From an uncultured Bdellovibrionales bacterium (GTDB lineage: Bacteria; Bdellovibrionota_C; UBA2361; J135), in NCBI GenBank assembly GCA_964650155.1, contig CAZYRE010000003.1, positions 1-49,837 of the forward strand: DNA of 49,837 bases, given 5' to 3'. Numbering within the stretch: position 1 is the first letter of the stretch; every line of letters begins with the position of its first letter. Position numbers and translations under genes: made by a program. Shown one piece after another: positions 5,057 to 43,242 of the stretch. The notes under the pieces are model-generated. The model was not told the DNA's origin and made no database searches. It worked only from the letters and a program-made list of their open reading frames with translations.

Positions 5057-6391
5057 CTATTTTGACTTTGTCTCTGTGACACCCTCAGTCAAAATTTTGG
5101 CAAGAGTTAACCAACTATCTTGTAAACCAACCTTTTCATTCACACGTTGTCGCAAAAACTCTGTGACTTTATCATAGAGATTTACCGCTCTATCCACACG
5201 TGGATTGAGTCCTGCCTTGTAAGCTCCAATGGTAATTAAATCTTCGTTTTCTTTATACGTAGCTAATATATCTCGAGTCTGATTTGCTAATTCGATAACT
5301 TCTGGGGGAACAATATCAGGCATTACCCTTGATGTGCTCTCAAGTACCTCTACTGCTGGAAAATGTCCCTTACTTGCTAATCTTCGGCTAAGTACCACGT
5401 GACCATCCAAGATGCCTCTTGTAGAGTCAGCAATTGGCTCATTCATATCATCGCCTTCAACAAGTACTGTATAAAGTCCGGTAATTGAACCTTGACCTTC
5501 TGAAGTACCAGCACGCTCAAGTAATTTTGGTAACATAGAGAATACTGAGGGTGTGTAACCTTTTGTGCTAGGTGGCTCCCCAATTGATAATCCTATTTCT
5601 CTCTGAGCCATTGCCAAACGAGTAACAGAATCGACCATTAAAACTACTTTTTTACCTTGATCGCGATAATATTCTGCAAGTGCGGTGGCATAATATGCTG
5701 CTCTAATTCTCTTGAGTGCGGATTGATCGCCTGTTGCTACAACTACAACAGATCTAGCTAAGCCTTCAGGACCAAGATCTCTTTCTATAAATTCTCTAAC
5801 TTCACGACCACGTTCACCTACTAAGGCAATTACGTTAATATCACTGGTAGAGTTTTTGGCTATCATGCCTAAGAGCGTAGATTTACCAACTCCTGAACCG
5901 GCCATAATACCGATACGTTGCCCTGAACCTACCGTAAGCATAGAATTTAAAACCTTAACCCCTAAATCTAGAGGTGCTTCTATTCGACGTCGCATGACAG
6001 GATTCGGTGGAGCCCTAAAAAGAGGAACCATATCCCCTTGTGTCGGCATCGGTTTTCGATCCATTGGTTGACCAAAAGCATCGATTATTCGACCTAAATA
6101 ATCATTCGAAACGAATACTGAGCTTGCTGCACCACCCACTCTAACTTGTGAACCGGGGCCTACGCCTTGAAGTTCTTCATAGGGCATCATTAAAACTCGA
6201 TCGCCCTTAAAACCTACGACTTGTGCAACGATCGTTTGATTACCACTTTGAACTCTTACATTTGTACCAACTGGCACTGATGGCCCATTACCTTCTATTA
6301 CTAAGCCAGTAACATCCATGACTGAGCCACGTAGTTCGTACCGTGTGGATCTGTTAATATGATTTTCTATCCGATCAGTTCGCGGGCTCAT
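5057..6391 (-). CDS. fliI: flagellum-specific ATPase FliI
   Basis: Walker A GSGVGKST, Walker B VVLMVDSVTR and F1/FliI-type motifs throughout. The ORF track starts it at a TTG at 6430. The ATG at 6391 forms an ATGA overlap with the fliH stop and is my preferred start. Confidence 0.95.
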   Translation of the reverse strand: MSPRTDRIENHINRSTRYELRGSVMDVTGLVIEGNGPSVPVGTNVRVQSGNQTIVAQVVGFKGDRVLMMPYEELQGVGPGSQVRVGGAASSVFVSNDYLGRIIDAFGQPMDRKPMPTQGDMVPLFRAPPNPVMRRRIEAPLDLGVKVLNSMLTVGSGQRIGIMAGSGVGKSTLLGMIAKNSTSDINVIALVGERGREVREFIERDLGPEGLARSVVVVATGDQSALKRIRAAYYATALAEYYRDQGKKVVLMVDSVTRLAMAQREIGLSIGEPPSTKGYTPSVFSMLPKLLERAGTSEGQGSITGLYTVLVEGDDMNEPIADSTRGILDGHVVLSRRLASKGHFPAVEVLESTSRVMPDIVPPEVIELANQTRDILATYKENEDLITIGAYKAGLNPRVDRAVNLYDKVTEFLRQRVNEKVGLQDSWLTLAKILTEGVTETKSK

Positions 6392-9678: not shown

Positions 9679-9688
9679 AGACTACTCC

Positions 9689-10146: not shown

Positions 10147-10223
10147 CACTTTAAAAATCTCAAGTTGATAAATTTCAAGTACTTAGATTCTCATAAAGAG
10201 ACTTTCTGTCAGGAGTTTGACAT

Positions 10224-13406: not shown

Positions 13407-13413
13407 CCTTTAA

Positions 13414-14907: not shown

Positions 14908-15224
14908 TCTGTTACAATTTGCATACGTATTTCCCAGGTAAAAGGCAGAAAAGATGAAAAAAATTGATCAAAAGTGTACAGTTCTGCACGGGATTAGCCG
15001 ATAAAGTTGCGCACTTCATCGGACGTGAGCAATGTTGCTCATCGCCAACAACCTGACTCCAGGCTCCCAGTCGTGCCAAGGCGCAGCGTCATTGATGTGG
15101 CACGGCTAGTTCTGGAGCTCCGCTAAACTACTATTCGCCCCTATATAAGGCGATGGTTGGTCTAATAAAAGACCATGGCGGTGGTGTCAGTATATATACT
15201 GTATTTAATTTATTGTTAATCACT

Positions 15225-19973: not shown

Positions 19974-21271
19974 TATGCTTTTGCTTGCTCACGTTTTGGT
20001 CGACGCATATCTAGGATCTGCCTAACCACAGTCTCTGCTAAGCTGAAAGCTTCATCTGTGGCTAGTGCTAGAGGCTTAATAACCTCGACAGCAAGTTCAC
20101 GTTTTCCAGCGTTGAGTGCGCCTCTGGCCACTGCTAATCTCAAAATCGTCTCGTTTGGATAGGCTTCCTGTAGACGGCAAAGCATATGGTAGCCATTCAT
20201 GGAGCGTGAAAATCGATCATACTCACTACATGCTAGCACTGCATAAAGGACTAAGTGTTCATGAATTTTTTCAGCCCGCAACAAAGCTTGCTCGATTGAT
20301 TGCAAGGCTCGTGTAAAACACAGTGCGGCATGAGGCATACTTACCTTTTCGTACCGAATGCCTGAATATAAATATGTAACCATTGAAGAGAAAAACTTGG
20401 TAGGTCGTGTTAATTTTTTAAGTTTACTCAGAGCTGCAAAAACGGTTTCTGCTCGCTTTTCTACTGTATGGTGCTTTAAGATCTCTTCAAACCCAGCAAG
20501 CCCTATAGATTTACATTTCTCTGGCTGAGCAAGAAGTTCCTTTATTTTTTGGGCTGCCTCACTAACGTTTCCACGCTCATAAGTTACTAAATGTCTTCCG
20601 TCTTCAAATAATTCAAATAGGCCATTACTACTCCTCTCGGTTAAAACCAAAGAGCCACTAGCTAAAGCCTCAAATACTCGAAAGTTTAGATCACCTTTGA
20701 CTGTCTGATTAATCACTATCCGAGCGTGAGGATAAAATTTCCAAAATTCTCCCCGAAGTAAAGTAACCGGGGCAACACGACATAGTTCATCAAAAAACTG
20801 AACACGATCTTTATTCAAATCGGGATCCATAGTGCCGACGAAAATTGCATCGTATTTCTTTTCATCGCTGGGTTCCATTAATCGCGATGCCCATAATGGC
20901 AGCCACTCGGCATCGACGCCCTCAGATTGAAATTCAGTAAGATAGTCCATATGAGCTACAAAACTCTTATCGCAAACAACGCCTAAATGTTTATGCCAAT
21001 GGGAGTGATGATGTGCGTCAACGGAATAAAATAACGTAGGAATTTCTGTTTCCTCGAGACCTACAACAGAGATAGGCATGCTGTTGTCGTGGTAAACAAT
21101 CAGATCGGGAACTCCGGATAATCCACAATCCCGAACGATATCATTAATCCGTCCTAGCGGCTTTTCGACGATATGATCAAGATGAACAGCGGATCCACTG
21201 GTTACAACTTCATGCCCAGCGGCTCTCCACTCAGCCGCGAACCAATCTTGGTTAAGCATGAGAATTTTCAT
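19970..21271 (-). CDS. CgeB-family (Glyco_trans_1_2) glycosyltransferase-like protein with a helical/TPR-like C-terminus
   Basis: AIFVGTMDPDLNKDRVQFF...INQTVKGDLNFRVFEALASGSLVLTE matches the CgeB-type C-terminal GT motif. The C-terminal 130 aa are helical-repeat-like. Confidence 0.6.
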   Translation of the reverse strand: MKILMLNQDWFAAEWRAAGHEVVTSGSAVHLDHIVEKPLGRINDIVRDCGLSGVPDLIVYHDNSMPISVVGLEETEIPTLFYSVDAHHHSHWHKHLGVVCDKSFVAHMDYLTEFQSEGVDAEWLPLWASRLMEPSDEKKYDAIFVGTMDPDLNKDRVQFFDELCRVAPVTLLRGEFWKFYPHARIVINQTVKGDLNFRVFEALASGSLVLTERSSNGLFELFEDGRHLVTYERGNVSEAAQKIKELLAQPEKCKSIGLAGFEEILKHHTVEKRAETVFAALSKLKKLTRPTKFFSSMVTYLYSGIRYEKVSMPHAALCFTRALQSIEQALLRAEKIHEHLVLYAVLACSEYDRFSRSMNGYHMLCRLQEAYPNETILRLAVARGALNAGKRELAVEVIKPLALATDEAFSLAETVVRQILDMRRPKREQAKAY

Positions 21272-21283
21272 AAATCACTAACA

Positions 21284-24200
21284 TTACGTCATACGTTGCG
21301 GCATGGTTTGTGCGATCCCAAGCTTTTCTATAATCAAGCTTCTCAGTTCAAGAGCATGATTGTTACTAGGCTCAAACATAATCAATCGCTCTAATTCTTC
21401 TAGAGCTTCGTGATATCTCTCCTGAGCGAACAAACACCCAGCAAGAGAGTACATAAAGTTACAATCAGCTGAGTGTAGTTCAAGGTAGCCTCGTACTGCT
21501 TCCTCTACTTCTTTAAGTTTCTTCATTGGATACCCGAGTTCGATTATCCCTAGAACCGCTCTAAGATTTTCAGGGTTTATCTTAAGGGAGGCTCTATAAT
21601 GTTCCCAAGCTTTTTGAACGTTTCGCATTTGTGCAGCACACATTCCAAGCCCGGCATAAGCTACATCAGATCTTGAGTCATATTTCAGAGCCTCACTAAA
21701 TAACTCCTCTGCTTTGAGCCAATCATTAGAGTTAGCTCGAAGAGCCGCTTGCCCACACAATGCCCTAGCGCTGCGAGGATTTGCTCTAACAACCTCTTGG
21801 TAAATGTCAGATGCTTTCTCAAGATTACCTTCAAGAATTGCTGTTTCTGCTATGAGAATCTTAGCAAATTCTATCTGCTCGTTGTTAGCTTCAGGATTTT
21901 TAAGAATCAAATCGCATCCAGACTTAACAGAATCAATCTCACGATTTCTCTTCTTTTCATTCAACTCAGCCAACTGCATATCAATTAAGGTATTTCTCGA
22001 CTTACTTGGTGATATAACCTGCGTTTCAGATTGTTCTTCATCAAGATAAACTACAGAAACATTTTTAGGCATACTTACTGTTGGTACCGATTCAGTTGCC
22101 GTAATGTTAGTAGCAGCTTGCTTTGGTAAGGATCTCTCTTCTTCAGTTATCCTAGAAGAAAGTTCTAATGCTCCTCGGTGAGTGCTATTCTGCGAAAGGA
22201 CTGATTGTAGTTGAGCTCGGGCACCCAAGTAGTTTTGAGACTTATAATAACAACCAGCTAGACAAAACCGCATCTCTAAATCTTGAGGGCTGCTGTTGAG
22301 ATACTTCTCAATGGCAACGGTTACATCAGTGAAGCGATTGAGGACGAAAGCACACTCTATTAATTGGTGTATCGCGACCAATTCAGTTGCCGATGTATTT
22401 AGCGCCTTAACAAAATAATCATATGCCATGGCATGATTCTTATTCATGACTTCGCACATTCCCCTTCCTATGAGCGACTTAGGATCATCAGACTTTATTG
22501 CTAGGGCTCGATCAAAGTATTTCTTCGCTCCTTCGATGTCGCTGGAGGCAAGATTGAGTGCGCCTCTCGCCATCATTAGTCGCACAGATTGTGGATTGAT
22601 CTTTTCAGCTTGGTCGAAAAGGGATCTAGCCTCATCGTTTCGACGATTCTTTGTTGCCAGTTCTCCTCTTTCAAGAAGATCCTGAAATGTCGTTGTTTCA
22701 TTATCCATGTCAAATGTAGGCGCCATAGGTGCTCCTTCCTGTTTCATAAAAACCTTATTATCGTTACTTAAACCAAGAATTTGTTGATATGAATCAAATG
22801 CGATCTGGGCCATATTTTCCCAGCTATATTGTGTCAATTTGGTACGCATTCTTTCATCATATGGTTGCGATAAAGCCTTGAGTACAGCCTCTCTAATTGA
22901 CCTTTCGTCTTTTGGATCACAATAAAATGCTAAATCTCCAAGGTAGTCTTCGATTGTTCCAGAATTTCCTGAAGCCACGACATTGCATCCATAATATGCG
23001 GCTTCTAGGGAAACTAATCCCGGTAGTTCGTAAAAACTAGGTAACGCATGTACCTTGGCTGCACAGTAAGCACTGGCTAGCATTTCATTATCGAGTCGAC
23101 CTAGGATTAATGTTTTCCCTTGACGTTTAAACTTTTGAACTGCTTCAGCGTATTCAGGCTGATATGAGAATCCACTACCAATTATCACCACCGGTATATC
23201 TGTATTCTCAAGCGCTTTGAGTAGCATTAACTGATTCTTTCTTGTCTCAAGCCTACCAACGCATAATACAAAGTCTTTGATGCCATAAGTCTGAATAAAT
23301 TTTTCAGCAGTTGCCGCCTTTGCCACGGTACTACCAAACATCACAGGAAATATTGGCAAATTTTTACCGTAATCACGCTCTAAAATTTTCCCTTCTGATG
23401 GACCACTTACAAACAGTCCGGCACTATTTTGCGCCGTCCAAGTGTTGTTAAAGTGACCAGATGGCTTTACGTCTTTCAGGTTCGGACGATTTGTTTCAAA
23501 CCACTTTTCATCCTGTCCCTTAGAAACATACTCAATTAAACATTTTGAAAGCACGTGTGATTGATAATGAAAATTTGGAACGTCTTCATATAATGTTGTA
23601 ACTACGTACGGGACACCTGCGGCCTTGGCATTTTGTGCAAGAATTTTTACATAATCAGGTAAAGCAAAATTGAAGAGATGAACAATATCGTAGTTTTTCG
23701 GATCTTCTTTTGCTTCTAAATCTACAGTGACCTTTGCTCCTCTCTTCTCAACTCCAACTCTTGTGTGTTCCATTACTACGGTATCACCACCTGGTTGCGT
23801 ATAGGCGTTTGGTCGATTCTGCATTAAAATCTTTATTTGTTTTGTTTGAACTACGCCCCGCCTATCCGTCTTATTCTGTATGTCCTTATTATCCTTCGAC
23901 GTTGCCGACATCCTAATTCCAAGGTCTAAGTAAAGTTTTCGTAAGTCTCTACTTAAGACATTCCATGATCTTGTTTGGGAAAGTTTTTTTACATTATTTT
24001 CTAGAGTCGATCTAAGCTCCTGGTTAAACAAAAGCCTCTCTAACGAAACCGACATTGGATAACCTGAAGTAACTGTCCAAACTGAGTCGCCAAATTCAGC
24101 GAATGCAGGGGCTAGAGAAGTTGCCACGACTTTGCCTAGTGACAACGCAGTAGCACATGCTGCGGATAGTTCATGATGTTGAGACAAGTAATTCAATACG

Positions 24201-26116
24201 ACTACGTCAGCAACAGCTATATATTTTTCAAGCTTTTCTTCAGGTATATACCCTTCAATAAAATGAATTTTGTTCGCAATATTTAATTTTGTAGCATATT
24301 GCTTTAATTGTTCAGAATAACTGCGACTATTAGGATCAGATTCATTTACTCCACCAACAATGTATCCATGAACATCTTGTTTGCTATCCTGTAATTGCTT
24401 CACTCCCTCGATTAAGGCCTCCATGCCCTTATGTGGCTGGATAAAACCGAATGTCAGAGCTACCTTTTGGTCTTGAGGAATTCCTAATTCCTTTCTCACC
24501 AATTCATTAGAATATTTATTTTTGCTGTCAGATATTCCATGTGGAGTGACTAAAATATTGTCATACCTCCATCCATTAGCCACAAGTTGCAACCGATTTT
24601 GCTGAGTATGTACGATTGCTTTATCAACACAACTTCCTAGGTTTACTAAAGCCTCGGTAGTTGTGAATGTTGTGTGCAACTGTGCAATTATCTTAATCCC
24701 ACGGCTACGCAATTCCCTCAGCATCATACAAAATGACGCGGTCGGGAAAATACCAGCTTGATGGATATTGATATGGAGCAGTTTTACTGAATACTTATCA
24801 ATTACTGATTTTAATTTTGTGAAATCGTTACTTCCTTTCTGCCAACACCTCTCTACAAACGCCTCATCTGGTCGTTGCCTTGGACTTGAAGTCTCCTCAG
24901 CTAGAATTACATAGCTATTTTGTGGATACTCAGCTACAAGATGCTCCGCATATCGGGCAATTCCACACTCCTGGTTCCATGTTGAGAGGTATCCGATTAC
25001 ACCCTCCGTCACATCGGAGTATTTTTCTTCATCAATAGAACTACTCTGTGCTAATTCGGTAATCTTCTTGGCTGTATCTTGCCAAGAAGGAATCCGACTA
25101 GAGACTTTTCTAGTTGTAGCAATTAACCTCAGAAGTTTATCTTTATCCCTCAATAACTCTGAAAGGGTGTTAGTTAAACTCTCCAGGCTGATTTCTGGTA
25201 TAACTACTCCACTCTCACAGTTTAAGATTGTCTCCTTCATGCCACCAATATCGAAGGCGACAACAGGACAACCACAACTTTGAGCTTCCAAGGAAGTCAG
25301 TGGATAAGAATCAAACCAAATCGAAGGCAGTACACAGAAAGCCGCATTCTTATAAGCCTTTACCAATGTATCTTGTGAGACAGCGCCGTGAAATTTGATT
25401 CCGGGCACTTCGTTTTCTATCTTCTTTTCGTCTAATATCTTCTCGCGTCCCCACATCGAGGAACTTCCATAAACATCTAGCTTTAATCTAGGGAAGATCT
25501 TCTTTAGTTCAAGAAAGGAATGAATAAGTAACTCGATACCTTTATCTCTTACTAAGGCACCTACAAATATGATTCTATCGAGATCCCGATTTTCATTTGC
25601 AGCACAGATAAATTTACTTTTATCGATGCCATTATTAACAACTGTAATTTTTTGCGCTGGAAACCCGGCATTTACGATCAAACGTTTCTGAGCTTCAGAA
25701 ACCGATATTACTCGATCACAATGTTTCGCCAGTGTTTCGCTTGAGACACCGGTGGCACTTCCAGAAGGATCATGACAGATCAAGGTTTTTGATAAGCAAT
25801 TTTTATCACCAATTGTCATGAGAAAAGGCATTGCTCGACCAGCTGAGATCAGATGGTATGGTCCCTCTTTAGAAACCTGGTCTAAGGCTGGCCTAAGATC
25901 AAAATCTTCCCCTACATCTACAAACTCTACGGTAGATTTAATGTTTAAGGTGTCTTTGATTCTACCGACTAAAGTTACACGATGACCTAATGAGGCTATT
26001 CCTTCAGCAAGGCACAGTGTCGCCCTTTCGGCACCACTATTGACCCCACCCAACGAAAGTTGATGGTCGGTATGTACAATTAAGTACCTAACATTACTCA
26101 CAAAAACCTCAAGCAA
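21284..26116 (-). CDS. giant multidomain glycosyltransferase: three GT4 (GT-B) modules followed by two TPR arrays
   Basis: Module 1 is aa 1 to about 360 (SLGGVNSGAE...YPLTSLEAQSCGCPVVA). Module 2 is about 375-745 (FGFIQPHKGMEAL...HELSAACATALSLGKVV). Module 3 is about 770-1115 (CVGRLETRKNQLMLL...LPGLVSLEAAYYGCNVVAS). TPR repeats run from about 1150 to 1610. The track start is a TTG at 26116; the GTG at 26101 has GAGG 5 nt upstream. Confidence 0.85.
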   Translation of the reverse strand: MLEVFVSNVRYLIVHTDHQLSLGGVNSGAERATLCLAEGIASLGHRVTLVGRIKDTLNIKSTVEFVDVGEDFDLRPALDQVSKEGPYHLISAGRAMPFLMTIGDKNCLSKTLICHDPSGSATGVSSETLAKHCDRVISVSEAQKRLIVNAGFPAQKITVVNNGIDKSKFICAANENRDLDRIIFVGALVRDKGIELLIHSFLELKKIFPRLKLDVYGSSSMWGREKILDEKKIENEVPGIKFHGAVSQDTLVKAYKNAAFCVLPSIWFDSYPLTSLEAQSCGCPVVAFDIGGMKETILNCESGVVIPEISLESLTNTLSELLRDKDKLLRLIATTRKVSSRIPSWQDTAKKITELAQSSSIDEEKYSDVTEGVIGYLSTWNQECGIARYAEHLVAEYPQNSYVILAEETSSPRQRPDEAFVERCWQKGSNDFTKLKSVIDKYSVKLLHINIHQAGIFPTASFCMMLRELRSRGIKIIAQLHTTFTTTEALVNLGSCVDKAIVHTQQNRLQLVANGWRYDNILVTPHGISDSKNKYSNELVRKELGIPQDQKVALTFGFIQPHKGMEALIEGVKQLQDSKQDVHGYIVGGVNESDPNSRSYSEQLKQYATKLNIANKIHFIEGYIPEEKLEKYIAVADVVVLNYLSQHHELSAACATALSLGKVVATSLAPAFAEFGDSVWTVTSGYPMSVSLERLLFNQELRSTLENNVKKLSQTRSWNVLSRDLRKLYLDLGIRMSATSKDNKDIQNKTDRRGVVQTKQIKILMQNRPNAYTQPGGDTVVMEHTRVGVEKRGAKVTVDLEAKEDPKNYDIVHLFNFALPDYVKILAQNAKAAGVPYVVTTLYEDVPNFHYQSHVLSKCLIEYVSKGQDEKWFETNRPNLKDVKPSGHFNNTWTAQNSAGLFVSGPSEGKILERDYGKNLPIFPVMFGSTVAKAATAEKFIQTYGIKDFVLCVGRLETRKNQLMLLKALENTDIPVVIIGSGFSYQPEYAEAVQKFKRQGKTLILGRLDNEMLASAYCAAKVHALPSFYELPGLVSLEAAYYGCNVVASGNSGTIEDYLGDLAFYCDPKDERSIREAVLKALSQPYDERMRTKLTQYSWENMAQIAFDSYQQILGLSNDNKVFMKQEGAPMAPTFDMDNETTTFQDLLERGELATKNRRNDEARSLFDQAEKINPQSVRLMMARGALNLASSDIEGAKKYFDRALAIKSDDPKSLIGRGMCEVMNKNHAMAYDYFVKALNTSATELVAIHQLIECAFVLNRFTDVTVAIEKYLNSSPQDLEMRFCLAGCYYKSQNYLGARAQLQSVLSQNSTHRGALELSSRITEEERSLPKQAATNITATESVPTVSMPKNVSVVYLDEEQSETQVISPSKSRNTLIDMQLAELNEKKRNREIDSVKSGCDLILKNPEANNEQIEFAKILIAETAILEGNLEKASDIYQEVVRANPRSARALCGQAALRANSNDWLKAEELFSEALKYDSRSDVAYAGLGMCAAQMRNVQKAWEHYRASLKINPENLRAVLGIIELGYPMKKLKEVEEAVRGYLELHSADCNFMYSLAGCLFAQERYHEALEELERLIMFEPSNNHALELRSLIIEKLGIAQTMPQRMT

Positions 26117-26567
26117 ACTCCTACTGAATTAATCAAGGCGCTATTAGCCTTACAGTTTATTGTGCAAGAGATGTACGAACGATGAAGTCAGACTAACTTA
26201 CTGATTTAACAATAGAATTGATCTTGTTCGAAATTGATACATCTGAAATTGAGCCAAAAATTTGGCGGTGACATTTAATTTACAATTAATACCGTATCTC
26301 ATTTATTCAAACTGAATCTTAAAACTGTGGGAACATTGATTCTCGATCCCCTGAGTGGAGAACTCTTTAACTCTACTGATGGGATTGAGTGGGACACAGG
26401 TTCCCCATGGTTGAATTAGGTTGATTGAGTTCTTTTCAGGTTGAGGTTTGTATTCGGTTCTAAGCAGCTTAGGTTTGATCTCTTTTTCCTCGTGCTTGTT
26501 CATAATTGGTTTTATAGCTGCGAAAGTTTAAAGTCCCACTTGATTCCACTTCTCATCCTCTGCCAGA

Positions 26568-27179
26568 GTGCTGTCTTCAACTAAACCGAAAACTAAGATG
26601 ATCACAATCTTTCATAGCAATACTCCGCTAAAGCAAAGCAAAGTTTTCGATCTGTCCTTAAGCAAAGTGAATACTAGGTGGGACGGGGCAATGCTCCCTT
26701 GGGAATTCCAATTTTTAATAGCACTAGATCCAAAGACGTTATGGCTAATGGGTGGCTCTGATGTGGTTCAAAAAAATACGCCCCCTTGCACTGCTGGAAG
26801 TTACTTTGACGGGTTGTGGAACTACGACGTTATCGAATTCTTTTTTGCTGGAACAGAAATTAATTATCTTGAGTTTCATATCGCTCCTGAAGGCAGGTGG
26901 TGGTGTCATCGATTTCATGGTCCATTAATCAGAGATCCGAAATATTCGGCTCCGAAAGTAATTAGCCATACATTATCTGGATCAGGTTGGAAAACAGCAC
27001 TCGAAGTTCCGCTAGAACATGTAAAGTCTATTCTCCTAGGTAACCCAACATTGGCAAATGTAACGGCAAAGTTTAATAGTCAAAATCAACAATATGGAAG
27101 TTTTGAACGATTGCCTGGTGAGAAACCAAATTTTCACCAACCTGCATATTTTCCGAAGATAGAACTAGTAAAAATTTAA
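26568..27179 (+). CDS. hypothetical cytoplasmic protein, possibly a CBM9/DOMON-like fold
   Basis: WNYDVIEFFFAG..INYLEFHIAPEGRWW resembles the carbohydrate-binding family 9 core motif. No signal peptide. The start is uncertain (GTG at 26568 or ATG at 26598). Confidence 0.4.
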   Translation: MLSSTKPKTKMITIFHSNTPLKQSKVFDLSLSKVNTRWDGAMLPWEFQFLIALDPKTLWLMGGSDVVQKNTPPCTAGSYFDGLWNYDVIEFFFAGTEINYLEFHIAPEGRWWCHRFHGPLIRDPKYSAPKVISHTLSGSGWKTALEVPLEHVKSILLGNPTLANVTAKFNSQNQQYGSFERLPGEKPNFHQPAYFPKIELVKI

Positions 27180-29887
27180 CCAGCTGCTCTAATCGAATTT
27201 TGATTGTCTACTTTACCTAATACAGTTCTAACAACCGTTAATAAATCTTGTATAGAAAATGGTTTGCTCAGTCTTGCTGCGATTCCAACCTCTTTATCTG
27301 AGGAAGATGACGCAGGGTCGTAGCCGGTACATAAAATAGCTTTAAGGCCCGGTCTAATTTCTTGTGCCCGTTTAATAAGAGTTATTCCATTCATTGAGGG
27401 CATAGTTAAGTCAGAAATTAACAAATCACAAAGTAGGCCATTGCGAAGTTGTTCCAAAGCTAAATTTGCATCTTGTGTCACTGTAATTTTATAACCACTT
27501 CGCGACAAAACTTCCTTGACTAGCTGTGTCACCATCTCTTCATCATCAATAAAAAGAATATGTTCAGAACCAACAACTATTGAACGTTTCTTTTCAGTGA
27601 CAGTTTGGCTATCAATGCCTTCAAAAAGTGGAACGTATAATATAAATTCAGAGCCCTTACCTTCTTCACTTTCTACAACTATTCTACCTCCTAAACTTTT
27701 GACCACCCCGTGAACGACAGACAAACCAAGCCCTGTACCTTCTCCAATAGGCTTTGTTGTAAAAAACGGATCAAAGATTCTTTCTTTGACTTTGTCAGGT
27801 ATTCCTCTTCCTGAATCTAAAACTGATAGCTTAACAAAGTTACGAACTCGTCCTGCTTGCGTTTCTAAATGCCGCACCGCAGAAATTGATAAGGTGCCTC
27901 CACTTTCCCGCATTGAATATATAGCGTTCGTGCAAAGATTCATCACCACCTGATAAACCTGGCTGGGATCAGCGAGAATATTATTTTCCTCTTCTACTTT
28001 TGTAGAGATGTAAATCCCGGGAGGAAGAGAAACCCTTAATAACCTAACAACATCATCTATGATACTTGATACATTTACGATCTCCTTTCTAGCATCGGAC
28101 TGTCTTGTAAATGTGAGAATCTGTTTTACTAGCTCTTTTGCACGATTTGCACCGCTTAGAACCGAGTCGCAATAAGTTTTACTCTCGTCGCTAGAACCGA
28201 TGCCTTCCTTTAGCAATTCTGCATAGCCAATTATAGAGCTTAAAATATTATTAAAATCATGCGCGATACCACCTGCCAGTGAGCCAAGGGCTTCCATCTT
28301 CTGAGTTTGACGAAGTTGCTGTTCCATAATCGCATGTGCTTCTTCAGCTTTCTTTCGGGCAGTTATGTCTTCACAAATTCCAGCGATTCGGAATACAGAT
28401 CCTGAATTATCACGTATCGGAAAAGCCCTATCACGAAGCCACCTTTCTTCACCATCAGGTCTCACGATTCTGAACTCAATATCATAGTTACCACTTTCTT
28501 GTGATGGTAAAGCAGCTTCAACGCGTTTTCTGTCATGTGGATGTACTGTCTCTAGCCAATCAATAGGATTCGCATAGTAGTAATCGCAAGGTCTTCCCCA
28601 GATATCCTCAAATGCAGGACTGATGTAATAGGCGATCTTTTTATCAGGGGAACTTAACCAGAAAACTCCATGAATGTTTTCTGTAAGCTGTCTGAACATC
28701 TCTTCACTTTGTCTCAACGCAAGGAGGGCATCTTCACGTTCTCTGACAATTAATGCTTGTGCTACTTGATCTGCAACATCAGCTGCAAAAGCTATTTCAG
28801 AAGCTGACCACTCCCTCTTAGTACCAATGTGCTCATTACAAACGGCCCCAACAACTTGACCACGTATACGTATTGCTGAGTCAAGCATTGAAGTTATACC
28901 AAGAGGTTTGAGATAAGCTTCGGTAAACTCTGATGTACGTGGATCTGTTTGTGCATCTCCAGCATCCACTGCTCTTCCCATTGTTAAAGCAGCAAAATAT
29001 CTTGGATAATCGGAAGCCTTCAGAACTATTCCAGAAGAGTGCATCTTTTTGTTACTTTCATATAGATCTGAACACTCGATCTTGCTGTAGTCTGATGACA
29101 GCATCCAAATCCCACACCGCTCAACCTTCAATATTTTAGCCGCTGTTTCTGTTACAACCTGCATGGCCTCATTAAATCTTCCACCTACGATAGCTGGATG
29201 AGAAGCTACGTATACTAAAGCAGCTTGCTCTTCCTGCGCCTGTTTAAGTTTGAGTTGCTCGTCGTGTGCTAACTTCAATCGATCAGTCACATCGAGAGCA
29301 GAAGAGGCTATCGCTATTATTTCCCCCTTATCATTCTTTAAAGGAGTGTTGTACCAATCACAAAGAATCCTTCGTCCATCCTTAGTTATGTTTTCATTTG
29401 TACTTCGAAAACCTCCGGTGCCTGAGGTTAACTGATCAAAAATATCATTAATTGGTGGCAGCAACTCAGCTGGTATTATTAAGTCCGATCCTAACTTGCC
29501 CAGGACCTCTTCTCTTTTAAAACCAAATATTCTTTCAGCTGTATCATTCCACTCAACGACCCTAAATGCATGATCCCAAACTATAGTAGCAAGAGGAGTA
29601 TGGCTGGTATGAGCTTTTAACCGCTGCCTTAACGTTATCACTTCATTCCGTTTTATAGGAATAGAACGAAAAATCAGATACAGCAGTGATGCGGTAAGTG
29701 CGAAAAAGATTTGTGGATGGTTGGTTAAAATAAATTCATATACCCAAGGTAGAGTACTTCTAAATTTGCTGATTCCACCTGAGAGATGAAAAGTAAAATA
29801 AGCAGCGATGCAAACTAAAATTGAGGAGATAGCAGCAAATGCTTCTCGTCCTAGGCGCAAGTGTTGCTTCTCGTCATCCTGAACCAA
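27176..29887 (-). CDS. hybrid sensor histidine kinase (2 TM, PAS, GAF, PAS, HisKA, HATPase, REC)
   Basis: H-box GGIAHDFNNILSSIIGYAELL, HATPase motifs DSGRGI and GTGLGLSVV, and a receiver domain ILFIDDE...LISDLTMPSMNG. PAS and GAF segments lie upstream. Confidence 0.9.
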   Translation of the reverse strand: MVQDDEKQHLRLGREAFAAISSILVCIAAYFTFHLSGGISKFRSTLPWVYEFILTNHPQIFFALTASLLYLIFRSIPIKRNEVITLRQRLKAHTSHTPLATIVWDHAFRVVEWNDTAERIFGFKREEVLGKLGSDLIIPAELLPPINDIFDQLTSGTGGFRSTNENITKDGRRILCDWYNTPLKNDKGEIIAIASSALDVTDRLKLAHDEQLKLKQAQEEQAALVYVASHPAIVGGRFNEAMQVVTETAAKILKVERCGIWMLSSDYSKIECSDLYESNKKMHSSGIVLKASDYPRYFAALTMGRAVDAGDAQTDPRTSEFTEAYLKPLGITSMLDSAIRIRGQVVGAVCNEHIGTKREWSASEIAFAADVADQVAQALIVREREDALLALRQSEEMFRQLTENIHGVFWLSSPDKKIAYYISPAFEDIWGRPCDYYYANPIDWLETVHPHDRKRVEAALPSQESGNYDIEFRIVRPDGEERWLRDRAFPIRDNSGSVFRIAGICEDITARKKAEEAHAIMEQQLRQTQKMEALGSLAGGIAHDFNNILSSIIGYAELLKEGIGSSDESKTYCDSVLSGANRAKELVKQILTFTRQSDARKEIVNVSSIIDDVVRLLRVSLPPGIYISTKVEEENNILADPSQVYQVVMNLCTNAIYSMRESGGTLSISAVRHLETQAGRVRNFVKLSVLDSGRGIPDKVKERIFDPFFTTKPIGEGTGLGLSVVHGVVKSLGGRIVVESEEGKGSEFILYVPLFEGIDSQTVTEKKRSIVVGSEHILFIDDEEMVTQLVKEVLSRSGYKITVTQDANLALEQLRNGLLCDLLISDLTMPSMNGITLIKRAQEIRPGLKAILCTGYDPASSSSDKEVGIAARLSKPFSIQDLLTVVRTVLGKVDNQNSIRAAG

Positions 29888-29989
29888 TCTATTCCCCTCA
29901 CAACTGCCGCGGTGATTAAAGTAACAGAAACTGAAACTAAATGTTCAGAAAAAGCTCAAAAAGTTAATTTTATCAATAAAATTAGATAG

Positions 29990-30769
29990 CTAACTAGTTG
30001 CTGTGCCGAGTAATACACCATTCTCAACAAACATATTCAAAGCAATTCGACACATTTGAGAATGGTGCTCAATGTTAGAATTAATACCAAGATCAATAAT
30101 TGAGGCCTCAAAAGCATCCGCCCAGGAGCAGTTCCTACTTATAATTATATCGAGAACATTTAAAACTAGTGGTGAAAGCTCACAATATTTAACAATGTCA
30201 GTAGTAATATCTCTGTAAGTTAATAAAAAATACCTGCCGGAGACCTGAGAAGAATTTTTTAATTCTTCAATGCTCATTCTAAAAACAGGATACATTAAAG
30301 CGCTAACTTGATGCACAGGATTAATTATTATTGCTTCATTCCATGGATCAACAGACTTTTTAAATGAAGGTAATTCTATCTCTGGCATCATGCCTACTTC
30401 AATTTCTACCCACTCAAACTCAAGTAGATCTCTTAAGTATGGGAACTCCGCTGCTTTCCATTCAGAGTTTTCAACAAAATTAAGTAATTCTCTAGGCATC
30501 TGCCATAGCTGGGGCGAAGGACATGGATGTGAAGATACAAATGTACTGATTAAATCATCCCAGATATTTTTACCAAGAACCCGTTTTGCAATTGGATAAG
30601 CTCTCGCTAGAGCATCCTGAAAGCCACCAAATATTAAGTCGCGATATACTGCTACCCGCTCATGCGAAGAAATTCCAGGGATATTGTAAGATTTCTTTGT
30701 TAAACAGAATCTCACCATCTCACGTTGATATCTCTTGAAATCTGAAGAGGAATCACTACTAGGCAGCAT
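29990..30769 (-). CDS. DUF2063-family protein (HvfC/BufC-like partner of MNIO enzymes)
   Basis: RVAVYRDLIFGGFQDALARAYPIAKRVLGKNIWDDLISTFVSSHPCPSPQLWQMPRELLNFV fits the DUF2063 N-terminal pattern (YRN..., FP...LG, ...P). Its start overlaps the DUF692 stop by 11 nt. Confidence 0.75.
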   Translation of the reverse strand: MLPSSDSSSDFKRYQREMVRFCLTKKSYNIPGISSHERVAVYRDLIFGGFQDALARAYPIAKRVLGKNIWDDLISTFVSSHPCPSPQLWQMPRELLNFVENSEWKAAEFPYLRDLLEFEWVEIEVGMMPEIELPSFKKSVDPWNEAIIINPVHQVSALMYPVFRMSIEELKNSSQVSGRYFLLTYRDITTDIVKYCELSPLVLNVLDIIISRNCSWADAFEASIIDLGINSNIEHHSQMCRIALNMFVENGVLLGTATS

Positions 30770-31607
30770 TAGCTAAGCTCCAACGAGTATCAACGATTTT
30801 CTGTAGCCTTAACATCTCATCAGCTAATTCTGCAGCCTCAGGAAAATTAAAATCTCTCTCAAGTAGAACAGGGACCTCTCTTACATACTGTAAGGTCCAA
30901 TCAAATAAATCAAAAACTGGTTCAATTATCGGACGACCGTGTGTGTCAATTATTAGGTCTTCTCCTCTCTTCTCATGTCCTGCCATATGTATATAGGCTA
31001 TCTTTTCGAGTGGCAGCGCTTTCAAAAATTTTCGAGCATCATAATTATGATTAAAGCTATTAACGTAAACATTATTTACATCAAGGAGGAGAAGGCAGCC
31101 TGATTCTTTAACAACGGCAGATATAAATTCTGCTTCATCCAATGTCGGGGCAATGGGTGTATAATATGAAATGTTTTCAACAGCTATTTGCTGACCCAAA
31201 AAATCCTGAACCTCTCTAATTCTATCAGATACGTGTTTGACTGCCTCTTCACAAAATGGAATTGGTAGAAGGTCATATAGATGTGCGTTGTCACATTTAT
31301 TAAAGCTTAAATGTTCTGAATAAAGCTGTACGTTATATACGCTCAAAAAATCTTTAACTTGTTTTAAAAATTCCCAGTCGAGAGGTTCTGGACTTCCCAA
31401 TGATAAGGAAAGGCCGTGGCAGGTTATTGGATATTTCTCTGTCACGGCCTTTAGCGTTTTGCCCCATTTGCCTCCGATATTCATCCAATTCTCAGGTGCC
31501 AGCTCAACAAACCTAGGATTCAGGGCATCCTGAGAAAGTAAACTCTCTGCAAGATCTCTTCTAAATCCTAATCCAACTCCTGAAATTTTTTGCTTTTCGA
31601 TAAGCAT
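30759..31607 (-). CDS. DUF692-family multinuclear non-heme iron oxidase (MNIO; MbnB/HvfB/BufB-like)
   Basis: TIM-barrel DUF692 motifs: VGLGFRRDL, VELAPENW, HGLSLSLGS, YSEHLSF, AVENISYY, LLLDVNNVYVNSFNHNYD, YIHMAGH. AAGGAAG RBS. Confidence 0.88.
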   Translation of the reverse strand: MLIEKQKISGVGLGFRRDLAESLLSQDALNPRFVELAPENWMNIGGKWGKTLKAVTEKYPITCHGLSLSLGSPEPLDWEFLKQVKDFLSVYNVQLYSEHLSFNKCDNAHLYDLLPIPFCEEAVKHVSDRIREVQDFLGQQIAVENISYYTPIAPTLDEAEFISAVVKESGCLLLLDVNNVYVNSFNHNYDARKFLKALPLEKIAYIHMAGHEKRGEDLIIDTHGRPIIEPVFDLFDWTLQYVREVPVLLERDFNFPEAAELADEMLRLQKIVDTRWSLANAA

Positions 31608-31637
31608 TTTCTTCCTTAGGGCAAACTAGATATGGAA

Positions 31638-31952
31638 TTAATGGGAACCAGTCTCACCCTCGCCCATGTCCATATCGCCACATTTACCTTCGCCGCATTT
31701 TCCTTCGGCAGTCTTTTCGTCTTTCTTCTCATCTCCACATTTACCTTCCCCACATTTACCTTCAGCATCCTTTTCATGATGCTCAGCATAAACTGGCACA
31801 TTCTGGGAATCAGAAGTTAAAATTGTAGAGCGAACTTGCATGGCAGCACCAAGATCTCTCACAGCGAATGTTTGTGATGCTTGAGCAACACCTGACATCA
31901 AGACTGAAACTGTGACAGCAGAAACAGCGCCCTTTCCTAATCTAATCTTCAT
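31638..31952 (-). CDS. secreted EGKCG-repeat peptide/protein, putative MNIO substrate (HvfA/oxazolin-like)
   Basis: Sec signal MKIRLGKGAVSAVTVSVLMSGVAQA. Two EGKCGEGKCGD blocks (Cys67, 72, 86, 91) sit in a Glu/Lys/His/Asp-rich tail ending DMDMGEGETGSH. It lies 30 nt upstream of the DUF692 gene on the same strand. AGGAA RBS. Confidence 0.8.
   Translation of the reverse strand: MKIRLGKGAVSAVTVSVLMSGVAQASQTFAVRDLGAAMQVRSTILTSDSQNVPVYAEHHEKDAEGKCGEGKCGDEKKDEKTAEGKCGEGKCGDMDMGEGETGSH
31674..31763 (-). repeat. two 33-nt coding repeats (31731..31763 and 31674..31706), each encoding EGKCGEGKCGD
   Basis: The plus strand shows ccacatttaccttc(c/g)cc(a/g)cat(tt)t(a/t)ccttc twice. The internal half-repeat GKCG-E-GKCG gives four GKCG units in all. 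Confidence 0.9.
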
Positions 31953-32148
31953 ATCTTTATTTCCTTTTTTTCTTCTAGGTACAGTCTACCGCCGAATGCG
32001 TAACTTATACCCTTCTAATGACGTATATTGATCTAAAACATTCACTTCAGCACCCGTAAAATTGAAACCACCTACTTTCCCGAAGCTAGGCCTGATATTA
32101 ATCATCTAATCTATAGTTGTTTAATCAGACTACGTTGGGGATAACTCG

Positions 32149-33315
32149 ATGAACTATCCAATTCAATTAAACAATTTTGAGATTGATGCTCAAAAGGGAT
32201 TCTTGCCAGCCACTGATCCTTTACGAACATTAGGTAGTGAATTTACTCCCTGGGAGGATGCCGCGCAGAACCTTCCTAAACTACTCGTAACAGACCGAAT
32301 ACGAGAAATTTTAAAACGCATGCCGAGTCTGGACCCAACAGATCTGAAAACACGAGCTGAACTCGAACGTGGCATGATGCTTCTCTCGTATCTGGGGCAT
32401 GGATATGTCTGGGGTGAAAAATCTATTGATCCAATCTTACCTTCCAACATAGCTGTACCTTGGCATGCAATCGCCTCAAAACTTGGTCGCCCTCCTGTGC
32501 TATCGTACGCTTCTTACGCGCTGTGGAATTGGCAGAGAATCGATTCATCTGGTCCTATTGCGTTAGGAAATATAGCCCTGCAACAGAATTTCTTAGCCGG
32601 TGTTGATGAAGAGTGGTTTATTTTAATTCATATAGATATCGAAGCAAAAGCTGCGAAAGCTATTACCTCCATCCCTGAGGCACTAACAGCACGGGATCAA
32701 AATGACATTCAGAACATGATTGTGGTGCTGAAAAATATCTCTACGTCTTTAAACGCTATAAACGCCACGATGGATAGAATGCCTGAGCATTGCGATCCAT
32801 ACATTTATTACAATAGAGTTCGTCCTTACATCCACGGTTGGAAAGATAATCCGGCTTTACCTAATGGGTTAATTTACGAGGGAGTCACCGCCTACGCTGG
32901 TAAGCCTCAAAAATTTCGTGGCGAGACTGGAGCTCAAAGCTCTATTGTTCCTGCTATTGATGCGATTCTAGGTATCAGCCACGACGACGACCCGCTCCGT
33001 CAGTATCTTAATGAAATGCGAGAATACATGCCTCCAGCCCATAATAATTTTATTAAAGCAGTCGAATCCGCTGGCTCAATTCGTGAATTGGTCAAAAAAC
33101 ACGCTAGCACTAACGTAGAACTTAGAACGTTATATAATAAGTCAGTTGAAGAGATTGAAAAGTTTAGAACTACGCACCTAACTTACGCTGCTAACTATAT
33201 TAATAAGCAGAAACAAACAAGTGAAGCTAATCCAACAGGTGTCGGAACTGGTGGCACTCCATTTATGGTTTATTTAAAGAAACATCGGGATGAGAGTACA
33301 AAACACTTTCTATAA
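32149..33315 (+). CDS. indoleamine 2,3-dioxygenase (IDO)-family heme dioxygenase
   Basis: Close motif matches to animal/fungal IDO: GETGAQSSIVPAIDAILGI (IDO1 GGSAGQSSVFQCFDVLLGI), MREYMPPAHNNFI (MRRYMPPAHRNFL), proximal-His helix FRTTHLTYAANYI (LRSYHLQIVTKYI) and GTGGTPFMVYLKKHRD (GTGGTDLMNFLKTVR). Confidence 0.9.
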   Translation: MNYPIQLNNFEIDAQKGFLPATDPLRTLGSEFTPWEDAAQNLPKLLVTDRIREILKRMPSLDPTDLKTRAELERGMMLLSYLGHGYVWGEKSIDPILPSNIAVPWHAIASKLGRPPVLSYASYALWNWQRIDSSGPIALGNIALQQNFLAGVDEEWFILIHIDIEAKAAKAITSIPEALTARDQNDIQNMIVVLKNISTSLNAINATMDRMPEHCDPYIYYNRVRPYIHGWKDNPALPNGLIYEGVTAYAGKPQKFRGETGAQSSIVPAIDAILGISHDDDPLRQYLNEMREYMPPAHNNFIKAVESAGSIRELVKKHASTNVELRTLYNKSVEEIEKFRTTHLTYAANYINKQKQTSEANPTGVGTGGTPFMVYLKKHRDESTKHFL

Positions 33316-33323
33316 AAATCGAA

Positions 33324-35888
33324 CTATTTTTTAGTAAATCTGGCTACTAACTCTTGATCAAGAGTTTGATTGGTGAGCTTGAGCTGACATATGGCAATTT
33401 GATTCCTTCGCAATTTAGCTCCTTTCGATCCGGTGGCGCGTTCTTTGATATTCAAACATCCAGAGTCCCAAACAACTTGGGAATTTCGTGCGGCTTTTGC
33501 AGATACAACTACATTGAGTTTTCTGCGAGTCAGCTTATAAGAATAACACCCTTCTCCACATTTTCTTCCTTTCGGTTCTAGAGAAAAATTACCATTACCA
33601 TCTCCGACAGAGTATAGGTGGATTTCAATGCGCTCGTCATCGCTTTCAAGCGGGCTGAAAGTTGCCTTCACTATAGTATCACTAGAAATTGTAACCTGGC
33701 ATATTCCGACACCTGTACAACTATCCCCACTCCAGCCTGAAAATGTGTATCCAGTATCTGGACTAGCAGTAAAAGTCATTATGGTCCCTGAAGTAACTGA
33801 TACTGATTTGCTATCACAATTTTGACCACAAGTTGCACCTGTGACCGAAGCTATGATTCCTCCATTCCCTTCCTTCTGAATACTTACAGTGAATTCTGAT
33901 TCATTGACCGGATTTATATTAACCTTAACTATAGCTACGCTAGAGTTCCCCGCGTTATCTAAAGCTGTTGCTCGTATCTCATAACTCTTACCATGCTGTA
34001 ACAAGATAGATCCCCAGGAAATCATAAATGGAGCGCTAGAATCTGTATTAATGGGTAGGTAAGAGCCACTGCCTACTTCTCTATATTCAAACTGTACATT
34101 TGCAATCCCAGATCCATCATCGAGGGCATTAGCAATTACATTTGGTGCTGATAGATCAGTATCGGAATTATTTGTTGGAGATGTGATTGCTACCGATGGA
34201 TCTACATAATCTATTGAAAATGTGCTCGATACTGCTGTTACTGTATTGTTTCCCTTTTCTAAAGTTAATTTAATCCGCGCATCATTAATTTCCTGATCCT
34301 CATAAGTGGAAGCAATGTTTGAGAATGTAATTGTTCTATTATTGCCGGATGTAACTCGAAGTGCCTTGTACCCATTTTGCACGTCTGTTCCACTTAAGGA
34401 TGTTTGTGGAATTGTAGTGTAGCCACTGCCGGTATTAATTTCCGCTGTAACCCAAACGAAATCAGAAGCAGTATTTGTATCAAAAGTAATAGAAAGATTA
34501 TTTCCTGACTGTTCAGCGACTAGATTGGTAATTGTAGGGAGTGTTGGTGAAGTCCTTGCGGTACTAGTTCCTCCATCATATCCAATATTGATTCGTCCCC
34601 CATTCTGTGATGGCTCGTTACTAAAATCGGAATCAGGATCTCCTTCATCTATTGCAAATGAAGTTGCTCGTAGCGAATAGTCGAAGGCTTCTGGATCATT
34701 AAATCCTGGATCTACTCTCATATTTCCATCAGACCAGGCAAACTGATTCATGTCATTATAATCACCTGAGATCTCATTGTTATAACTGTAAGCTGGCGCG
34801 AGCCCGTTGTGAAGAAAGGCCCCACCTACTGCTGAAGCCAGCATGTTGTATTTTAATGATCCAACTACGGCATTTGAACTCGAATACCCATCAATAGATC
34901 CAGTTATTGAAAGCCCAAAATATCCATTCCCTGTAAAAATATTATTTACAATATCGAATGGGCCCGCATTATTCCCATAAATATGCAGGCCAGCACTACC
35001 GTTATCTGCGGCAACGTTATTAGCGATGCTTGCTGTACCTGGTTTATAGAATACAATTCCATCAACTACATTCTGCACAGACACATTGCCTCGGACAACA
35101 TCATCACCAAGCCAAAGTGATATGCCATTTGTATTACTATAAACTTTGTTTCTTAAAACTTGCGGAGCTACTCCTGCTGAAGCCTGAACATATATCCCTG
35201 TTTTGTTATTATAAGTTTCATTCTCTTCAATAATGTCATCATCATCCGCGCGCTGCACGTAGATGCCCACACAAGATGTACAAGTATGATTAAAGACAAG
35301 GTTTCTTCTAATTATTGCCTGGCCAGTTAGACCATGTGTTCCTGTAGATATTCCACCGTAATCACCATTTGAATATACGGTACAATCTTCGACAGTAAGA
35401 TTATTCACATAGTAAGCATATATGCCGAAAGAAGTTGAATCATGAACAGTACAATTTCTAAGATATAGGCTACTTGATGTTGTCGAGGTTACGACTCCTT
35501 GACTGCTTGATCCTACAAATCCAAGACCATCGACTGTTACGGATCCACTATGAAATGAATTCAAACGAAAATTTGTAAATATACTTTTATTATTAACAGT
35601 ATCACGTGATGTAAAGCTAGAATTATAACCGCCATAAATATCAAGATTTACGGCTCCACCTAAATCTATATTTTCATTATAGGTGCCTCCTTGAATTTCG
35701 ATCCTATCGCCGCTATGGAAATCTAACTGGGCATCAGAAAATGTTGTGTAAGGACATCCGGATGGACAAATTCTTAGTGTTGCACTGAATGAGGAAACAG
35801 GGATCAGAAGCCACACAACCATCAATCCATACAATGAAATGGAAAACCGAAATAATTGGTTGATTGCTTGTATTATTCTCACTGCCAA
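33324..35888 (-). CDS. large secreted right-handed beta-helix protein with Ig-like and InlB-B-repeat-like C-terminal domains
   Basis: Hydrophobic N-terminus ending SSFSA. Long run of beta-helix rungs (NCTVHDS, VEDCTVYSN, RRNLVFNH, NKVYSN, NNIFTGNG). Ig-like block with DDGSGIANVQFEY. GYTFSGWSGDSCTG repeat motif. Confidence 0.7.
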   Translation of the reverse strand: MAVRIIQAINQLFRFSISLYGLMVVWLLIPVSSFSATLRICPSGCPYTTFSDAQLDFHSGDRIEIQGGTYNENIDLGGAVNLDIYGGYNSSFTSRDTVNNKSIFTNFRLNSFHSGSVTVDGLGFVGSSSQGVVTSTTSSSLYLRNCTVHDSTSFGIYAYYVNNLTVEDCTVYSNGDYGGISTGTHGLTGQAIIRRNLVFNHTCTSCVGIYVQRADDDDIIEENETYNNKTGIYVQASAGVAPQVLRNKVYSNTNGISLWLGDDVVRGNVSVQNVVDGIVFYKPGTASIANNVAADNGSAGLHIYGNNAGPFDIVNNIFTGNGYFGLSITGSIDGYSSSNAVVGSLKYNMLASAVGGAFLHNGLAPAYSYNNEISGDYNDMNQFAWSDGNMRVDPGFNDPEAFDYSLRATSFAIDEGDPDSDFSNEPSQNGGRINIGYDGGTSTARTSPTLPTITNLVAEQSGNNLSITFDTNTASDFVWVTAEINTGSGYTTIPQTSLSGTDVQNGYKALRVTSGNNRTITFSNIASTYEDQEINDARIKLTLEKGNNTVTAVSSTFSIDYVDPSVAITSPTNNSDTDLSAPNVIANALDDGSGIANVQFEYREVGSGSYLPINTDSSAPFMISWGSILLQHGKSYEIRATALDNAGNSSVAIVKVNINPVNESEFTVSIQKEGNGGIIASVTGATCGQNCDSKSVSVTSGTIMTFTASPDTGYTFSGWSGDSCTGVGICQVTISSDTIVKATFSPLESDDERIEIHLYSVGDGNGNFSLEPKGRKCGEGCYSYKLTRRKLNVVVSAKAARNSQVVWDSGCLNIKERATGSKGAKLRRNQIAICQLKLTNQTLDQELVARFTKK

Positions 35889-43232: not shown

Positions 43233-43242
43233 ACGATCACCT

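Follow-up and report, generated by a model that had tools for sequence, protein, structure and literature searches.

The HvfABC system makes oxazolin, a Cu(I)-binding product whose three AEGKCGEGKCG motifs contain six Cys, each with a loss of 4 Da (PMC11252979). The Hvf modification, first described as oxazolone/thioamide, was reassigned in 2026 to 5-thiooxazole (10.64898/2026.06.05.730506; PMC13097082), the group that all characterised clusters pairing a multinuclear non-heme iron oxidase (MNIO) with a PME1 partner install (PMC13097082). As its active cofactor the MNIO has a mixed-valent diiron cluster, which does not form unless the partner is there (10.64898/2026.07.17.739211), and turnover by FonBC requires two adjacent repeats (PMC13097082). 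About 2,000 non-redundant Buf_EGKCG/oxazolin precursors have been catalogued, with the cluster genes for precursor, MNIO, DUF2063 and DoxX occurring "in various combinations" (PMC12452194), and the wider class, the captophorins, exceeds 20,000 clusters in RefSeq (PMC13097082). Here we describe a member of this family, consisting of precursor, MNIO and DUF2063 partner genes, on a 49,837-nucleotide (nt) stretch of contig CAZYRE010000003.1 (assembly GCA_964650155.1) from an uncultured Bdellovibrionales bacterium, termed the window herein. A first-pass annotation of the DNA alone had called the class only recently described; recent it is, yet by now it is widely surveyed and automatically named by NCBI annotation models.

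An intact three-gene operon

The operon comprises the following genes, with lengths in amino acids (aa):

31952..31638, minus strand: precursor gene, 104 aa (open reading frame [ORF] listing and direct reading of the strand)
31607..30759, minus strand: MNIO gene, 282 aa, beginning 30 nt past the precursor stop codon
30769..29990, minus strand: DUF2063 partner gene, 259 aa, overlapping the MNIO stop by 11 nt

The first-pass annotation had described a tight, co-directional trio, and the ORF listing reproduced every coordinate, the gap and the overlap. It had also placed the trio among HvfABC/oxazolin-type systems that modify Cys to Cu-binding heterocycles, an assignment that held against curated models and structure. 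The profiles that it had named (DUF692, DUF2063 and HvfA precursor models) gave significant matches for all three proteins; on the bufferin side, the precursor lacked DUF2282 and scored above the cutoff of the HvfA-family repeat model. All three ORFs are intact and each has a Shine-Dalgarno-like sequence by direct reading. The set is an intact operon of the already described oxazolin/captophorin family, and its gene content, family membership, catalytic residues, substrate motif, partner fold and operon architecture were all observed at this locus.

We gathered 85 related loci (numbered with the prefix L) and compared them by tblastn and ORF extraction. The precursor gene lies directly upstream of the MNIO gene in nearly all of them. 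The 11-nt overlap between MNIO and partner genes recurs in L001, L003, L005, L086, and L088, and the translational coupling of these two genes is conserved. Copies of the window locus that are 99% identical came from three independent read sets (L089-L091); they were found through homologue searches, and an exact-sequence look-up of the window MNIO returned no record.

MNIO enzyme and partner protein

The predicted DUF692 gene matched PF05114 with 335 bits (E 3.5e-100) across model positions 1-262 of 263. Its product scored above the cutoff of the HvfB family equivalog NF003818 (390.2 bits, cutoff 360) and below those of the BufB equivalog NF050167 (277.3 bits, cutoff 310), the ApyH model (74.4 bits, cutoff 400), the ChrH model (64.8 bits, cutoff 600), and the MbnB model TIGR04159 (49.8 bits, cutoff 325). 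Among solved structures, the nearest is that of the HvfB homologue from Histophilus somni (3BWW, E 1.4e-70). The enzyme is only ~60-70% identical to annotated HvfB-family members and is missing a Haemophilus-type insertion of ~21 residues; its nearest relatives are labelled as Bacteroidota, Ignavibacteria, Bdellovibrionales, Calditrichia, and Chlamydiales metagenome-assembled genomes.

Residue conservation was assessed in an alignment of the MNIO and its 120 best homologues (121 sequences), in which H64, H99, E144, D176, N179, H207, H211, D221, H223, E250, and D252 were invariant. Candidate Fe ligands are H64, H99, E144, D176, N179, H211 (or H207), D221, H223, and E250, all nine positions being present and invariant, and D252 is the candidate catalytic base. 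N179, D221, and H223 match HvfB N175, D242, and H244 by sequence motif, not by alignment to HvfB; substitutions of these HvfB residues abolish activity (10.64898/2026.07.17.739211). By motif, R16-R17 and D252-F253 likewise match FonB R15/R16 and D249/F250, of which D249 is the catalytic base and R15/R16 and F250 are the Lys-Cys specificity residues; that Phe separates enzymes acting on Lys-Cys (EGKCG) substrates from Cys-Lys enzymes (PMC13097082). The Lys-Cys determinants R16-R17 and F253 are thus present in the window MNIO.

The gene overlapping the MNIO stop, predicted to encode a DUF2063 protein, matched PF09836 (68.2 bits, cutoff 27.2; E 8e-19), and the C-terminal domain of its product gave a marginal score with PF22106 (NGO1945_C; 26.5, cutoff 27). 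Because a sequence-only search of the Protein Data Bank (PDB) yielded a marginal match to 3DEE (E 0.7), structure prediction and a fold search were needed to place the fold. An AF2 model built from nine sequences had a mean predicted local distance difference test (pLDDT) of 83.9, and its top PDB matches were NGO1945 (3DEE; template modelling [TM] score 0.73 on target, probability 1.0) and TglI, which is an MNIO partner protein. By this predicted structure the partner is of the HvfC type, with a DUF2063 N-domain and a C-domain resembling NGO1945_C and the RiPP recognition element (RRE), that is, a PME1 protein (RiPP, ribosomally synthesised and post-translationally modified peptide).

Precursor peptide

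The 104-aa product had been read as a secreted protein with two EGKCG-type blocks, and both features were seen, the signal by eye. It begins with MKIRLGK followed by GAVSAVTVSVLMSGVAQA and then SQ, an arrangement with the n-region, h-region, and AXA site of a Sec signal. By inspection, the predicted signal peptide covers aa 1-25, with three basic residues, a hydrophobic stretch of 15-18 residues, and cleavage between AQA and SQ (AQA and the following S are aa 23-26); the same layout occurs in 23 of 23 representative homologues. An N-terminal Sec signal, again by inspection, thus stands in place of a classical leader, and the repeated (E/A)GKCG motif of oxazolin-type precursors, usually found in pairs (EGKCGEGKCG), is present in two blocks:

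31766..31731, minus strand: repeat block 1, AEGKCGEGKCGD, aa 63-74, with Cys 67 and Cys 72
31709..31674, minus strand: repeat block 2, AEGKCGEGKCGD, aa 82-93, with Cys 86 and Cys 91

The blocks are identical as peptides and differ at 5 of 36 nt, and because all of these differences are third-position and synonymous, the repeat appears to be kept at the protein level. Each block supplies two repeats, as FonBC needs. The predicted mature peptide has 79 aa, a pI of 4.8, four Cys, and no Trp. The precursor matched NCBIfam NF050137 (KCGExKCG_twice, HvfA-family repeat domain) with 47.9 bits against a cutoff of 19.5 (E 7.6e-13); a Pfam scan of it matched no family. Its homologues carry the name "HvfA family ... 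RiPP metallophore" and, judged by sequence, it is a family-level relative of HvfA, not an orthologue.

A second motif follows the signal, LGAAMQVRSTI (aa 34-44; window 31821-31853), which lies within DLGAAMQVRSTIL (aa 33-45). All 23 representative precursors, drawn from several phyla, carry the pattern [LIM]G-x-[GA]-x-x-[LIVM]-R-x-x-[LIVM] ~8-12 residues past the predicted cleavage site. A related motif, L-x-x-G-Y-x-[LV]-A, occurs in HvfA-family members of the Gammaproteobacteria. The partner protein may recognise the precursor through this conserved post-signal motif, a candidate site that can be tested.

Cys counts among the related loci ranged from 2 to 10 per precursor, with two in L088 and L074 and four in many Chitinophaga species. 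The first-pass annotation had considered four Cys minimal, which does not hold: four is at the low end only, since related precursors reach down to two. The closest relatives of the window have five or six Cys in other block arrangements, and repeat number evidently changes quickly among relatives.

A DoxX-type fourth gene had been reported absent and its absence taken as unusual. The absence was borne out in the 50-kb window by Pfam searches of all ORFs of at least 120 aa and by tblastn, and a custom DoxX hidden Markov model from 52 related loci gave a best E of 0.12 against the six-frame ORFs of the window, with no DoxX. The unusualness was not, as a DoxX gene comes after the partner gene in 52 of the 78 related loci that were informative and is missing from the other 26. 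DoxX absence is a common variant, and because the core genes occur in various combinations (PMC12452194), DoxX is not a defining feature. Two more distant relatives illustrate the four-gene form with DoxX: the next gene after the operon encodes an Hpt-domain protein in L005 (12172-12519) and an NDH-2-like flavoprotein in L088 (11223-12545).

Proposed pathway

Very probably, the trio is a self-contained oxazolin-type (EGKCG, "captophorin") RiPP operon that works as follows. The 104-aa precursor would be synthesised in the cytoplasm, where the DUF2063/RRE partner would bind the MNIO; a second probable contact of the partner is the precursor region directly after the signal peptide. By analogy with the homologous systems, the MNIO, with a mixed-valent diiron centre and O2, would carry out a four-electron oxidation of each of Cys 67, 72, 86, and 91, converting each to a 5-thiooxazole, the hallmarks of which would be a chromophore at 302-305 nm and a mass lower by 4 Da for every Cys, or by 16 Da for the whole peptide. 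The modified peptide would then be exported by Sec, with the signal cut after AQA25. The resulting 79-aa acidic product, periplasmic or extracellular, may bind Cu(I) at about one Cu per thiooxazole pair, or about two in total, and may buffer or sequester copper. For the chemistry, the order of export, and copper binding we infer from the homologues HvfABC, FonABC, NgoABC, and BufABC. The first-pass annotation had named two products for systems of this kind; thiooxazole is the one to be expected here, and the oxazolone/thioamide alternative has been superseded by the 2026 reassignment.

Several observations weigh against this interpretation. The Sec signal of the precursor was recognised by eye alone. 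The precursor scored 36 bits against the Haemophilus HvfA equivalog NF050188 (cutoff 95), with only aa 57-92 aligned, and the partner, aligned over its full length, fell below the HvfC equivalog NF050145 (114.8 bits, cutoff 142). Pfam and promoter scans revealed no copper-responsive regulator, promoter, or copper-homeostasis gene nearby. Unmodified HvfA, too, binds some Cu(I), and for EGKCG peptides, type members included, there is no agreed role (detoxification, acquisition, or other).

Genomic neighbourhood and regulatory signals

The operon is flanked by the following features, the kinase and indoleamine 2,3-dioxygenase (IDO) genes being located as the first-pass annotation had claimed:

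ORF start 29887, minus strand: hybrid kinase (PAS-GAF-PAS-HisKA-HATPase-receiver), 903 aa, 102 nt downstream of the partner gene
32149..33315, plus strand: IDO gene, 388 aa, divergent from the precursor gene
31953..32148: divergent spacer between IDO and precursor genes, 196 nt, presumed promoter region

The IDO (32149-33315, plus strand) belongs to the bacterial indoleamine 2,3-dioxygenase family (PF01231, E 8.8e-110) and has 73 metagenomic relatives, most at 44-56% identity, several of them on contigs that carry marine or sediment metagenome labels. Convergent with the kinase is a 203-aa ORF (26568-27179, plus strand) that overlaps the kinase stop by 4 nt. It matched no Pfam family, the best being CBM9_2 at E 0.088, and adjoins the kinase in all relatives, including L092 and L093; an ORF of 27% identity lies ~3 kb upstream of the L005 operon.

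Four species have the block of IDO, trio, hybrid kinase, and convergent 203-aa ORF: that of the window strain (L089-L091, 99% identical) and three others, with the following identities to the window:

L086/L087: MNIO 87%, partner 62%
L001/L002: MNIO 74%, partner 42%
L003/L004/L006: MNIO 73%, partner 41%

The genes flanking this block differ among the four species. Scanning metagenomes with the IDO protein gave 73 loci. In two of these, L092 and L093 (metagenome contigs Ga0172376_10005565 and Ga0172372_10003354, ~2200-7150), the IDO faces the kinase directly and the 203-aa ORF comes next, with the trio missing; identity to the window was 77% for the IDO, 54-57% for the kinase, and 42% for the 203-aa ORF. 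Neither blastn nor tblastx detected remnants of the trio in the L093 spacer, which holds a 98-aa Cys-containing small membrane ORF (5898..5602) without similarity to the cassette. The remaining 71 loci had the IDO alone, with no MNIO genes. In neighbour-joining trees of the IDO, the kinase, and the 203-aa ORF, L092 and L093 fell between (window, L086) and (L001, L003) in all three. On the simplest reading, the trio forms a separable cassette, ancestral to the clade and lost or moved in the L092/L093 lineage. On the same reading the kinase and IDO are resident neighbours and not components of the peptide system, because L092 and L093 keep the IDO, kinase, and 203-aa ORF without the trio. The kinase/IDO context is lineage-specific synteny, and the comparison documents a cassette that can be cleanly lost from a conserved neighbourhood.

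Regulatory signals were sparse. In a promoter and terminator scan of 26400-33400, counts did not exceed those of shuffled sequences, and none lay between the partner gene and the kinase. Rfam had no match in the whole window, i.e., no riboswitch or leader RNA, and the sole results of an inverted-repeat search in the two intergenic regions were a palindrome at the partner stop codon and a weak repeat in coding sequence. When the IDO-precursor spacers of three species were aligned, the region upstream of the precursor gene showed a weak inverted repeat (nCGAA-N15-TTCGn), clear in L001 (~5235-5260) and L003 (~9470-9495) and with one mismatch per arm in the window (~32025-32050). With three sequences, this repeat is indistinguishable from chance and insufficient for an operator call. 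As these searches brought up neither a promoter or terminator nor an Rfam element or convincing operator, the trio might conceivably be co-transcribed with the kinase.

Alternative explanations

The trio could instead be part of a larger functional unit with the hybrid kinase and possibly the IDO and 203-aa ORF. The kinase might then act as a sensor of O2, redox state, or copper that controls the operon, or the peptide might feed into a signalling pathway, to give two examples. Retention of the block in four species (window/L089, L086, L001, and L003) while the outer genes change would fit such a unit, as would the lack of a terminator-like site between partner gene and kinase and the Hpt-domain gene after the L005 operon. 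We nevertheless consider it unlikely. L092 and L093 are nested in the clade with the IDO facing the kinase and no trace of the trio, and the co-occurrence with kinase or IDO that the first-pass annotation had raised proved limited to the four species: by tblastn, none of the ~75 more distant MNIO loci had the IDO or this kinase adjacent, nor did any of the 71 more distant IDO loci have MNIO genes. The partner-to-kinase spacer also varies from 102 to 301 nt among relatives, and a precursor without Trp offers no obvious IDO substrate. Tailoring of the peptide by the IDO was discarded on the last of these points together with the lack of MNIO genes at other IDO loci, and the kinase as a cluster member was rejected as the leading interpretation on the L092/L093 evidence.

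A narrower version, in which a DoxX-less trio was recruited under control of the hybrid kinase with the IDO sharing the divergent promoter region, is distinctly improbable, and L092 and L093, with kinase and IDO and no trio, argue against an obligate kinase-trio link. If true, kinase control would couple the making of a thiooxazole copper peptide to an O2/redox or small-molecule phosphorelay, and no such regulatory scheme has been described for captophorins.

It is very unlikely that the MNIO installs a modification other than that of Hvf/Fon, or modifies some Cys only, so that the product is not a thiooxazole copper binder; oxazolone/thioamide as in methanobactin, or another MNIO chemistry, would be examples. 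MNIOs do perform many different reactions, the window enzyme has the modest identity to annotated HvfB-family members and the missing insertion noted above, and the precursor outside the repeats is unmatched to Haemophilus HvfA. Against this stand an HvfB equivalog cutoff that was exceeded where those of MbnB, ChrH, ApyH, and BufB were not, an EGKCG substrate motif identical to characterised ones, the presence of the Lys-Cys determinants and the catalytic Asp, and the 5-thiooxazole product common to the characterised MNIO-PME1 clusters (PMC13097082). That the locus is a decaying or silent remnant whose small ORF is an unmodified low-complexity secreted protein, as the lack of a recognisable promoter, the loss of the cassette in one related lineage, and the quick variation of repeat number might suggest, is hardly credible given three intact ORFs with Shine-Dalgarno-like sequences, invariant catalytic residues, exclusively synonymous repeat differences, 99%-identical copies in three independent read sets, and conservation of the trio across species whose partner proteins are just 41-62% identical.

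Other genes in the window

Beyond the IDO, an 854-aa protein (33324-35888, minus strand) combines a NosD-like right-handed beta-helix with Big_7 and InlB B-repeat domains. It is present in L086 and L089, with other genes in its place in L001 and L003; its "NosD copper-binding" name is a generic beta-helix match and no grounds for a copper link. A flagellar export and basal-body cluster (FliJ, FliI, FliH, FliF, and rod proteins) lies within 3828-14517 on the minus strand; the genes after it encode two sigma-54 activators, a histidine kinase, and a TPR protein. The region 15153-26116 encodes a 1606-aa NAD-specific glutamate dehydrogenase on the plus strand and, on the minus strand, a 433-aa glycosyltransferase and a 1610-aa protein with three GT4 domains and TPR repeats. 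Consecutive ORFs of 236, 449, and 218 aa at 42522-45206 (minus strand) matched no Pfam family at E ≤ 0.001.

Comparison with characterised systems

The operon adds one further EGKCG-type thiooxazole metallophore cluster to the more than 20,000 known, with parts already named by NCBI models, and has little importance beyond correct annotation. It does document the family in an environmental lineage outside the Pseudomonadota, and its compact three-gene form with a four-Cys precursor would be a convenient small substrate for biochemical work.

Among the characterised systems, methanobactin MbnABC likewise relies on an MNIO, which turns Cys of a ribosomal peptide into a copper ligand. It differs in its MbnC partner, in having a leader peptide and not a Sec signal, and in its oxazolone/thioamide product, and the window MNIO is far under the MbnB cutoff (49.8 against 325). 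BufABC has in common the enzyme/partner pair and a Sec-exported precursor (PMC12452194); the thiooxazole chemistry and copper-buffering role of bufferins (PMC12452194) would, by analogy, extend to the window. Bufferins are Buf1 (DUF2282) or Buf2 (6/12 Cys) proteins, whereas the window precursor is without DUF2282 and has four Cys. The MNIO misses the BufB cutoff (277.3 against 310), and sigma/anti-sigma (NrsF) genes of the bufferin type do not occur near the operon.

FonABC/fontiphorin of Fontimonas thermophila and NgoABC/gonophorin share the EGKCG Lys-Cys repeats, for which the double repeat is the minimal substrate. FonB residues R15/R16, D249, and F250 are matched in the window MNIO by motif, and the captophorin PME1 partner with the 3DEE fold has a counterpart in the window partner as modelled. 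FonA has seven modification sites and the window precursor four Cys; clusters of the Fon/Ngo type have been surveyed in Pseudomonadota, often with DoxX, whereas the window lies outside that phylum.

HvfABC(X) is set apart by a third block in HvfA (six Cys, compared with two blocks and four Cys here), by the N-terminal disulfide pair C38/C43, which has no equivalent in the window precursor, and by the post-signal region, LGAAMQVRSTI in the window precursor and different in Haemophilus HvfA. The HvfX (DoxX) gene of the Haemophilus cluster has no counterpart in the window, nor does the ~21-residue insertion of its MNIO, and the host of HvfABC is a pathogen, nontypeable Haemophilus influenzae, whereas that of the window is an environmental bacterium. 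The two systems nonetheless share a Sec-signal precursor with AEGKCGEGKCG blocks (PMC11252979), an HvfB-family MNIO with the same set of putative Fe ligands, a DUF2063/RRE partner, and the gene order precursor, MNIO, partner.

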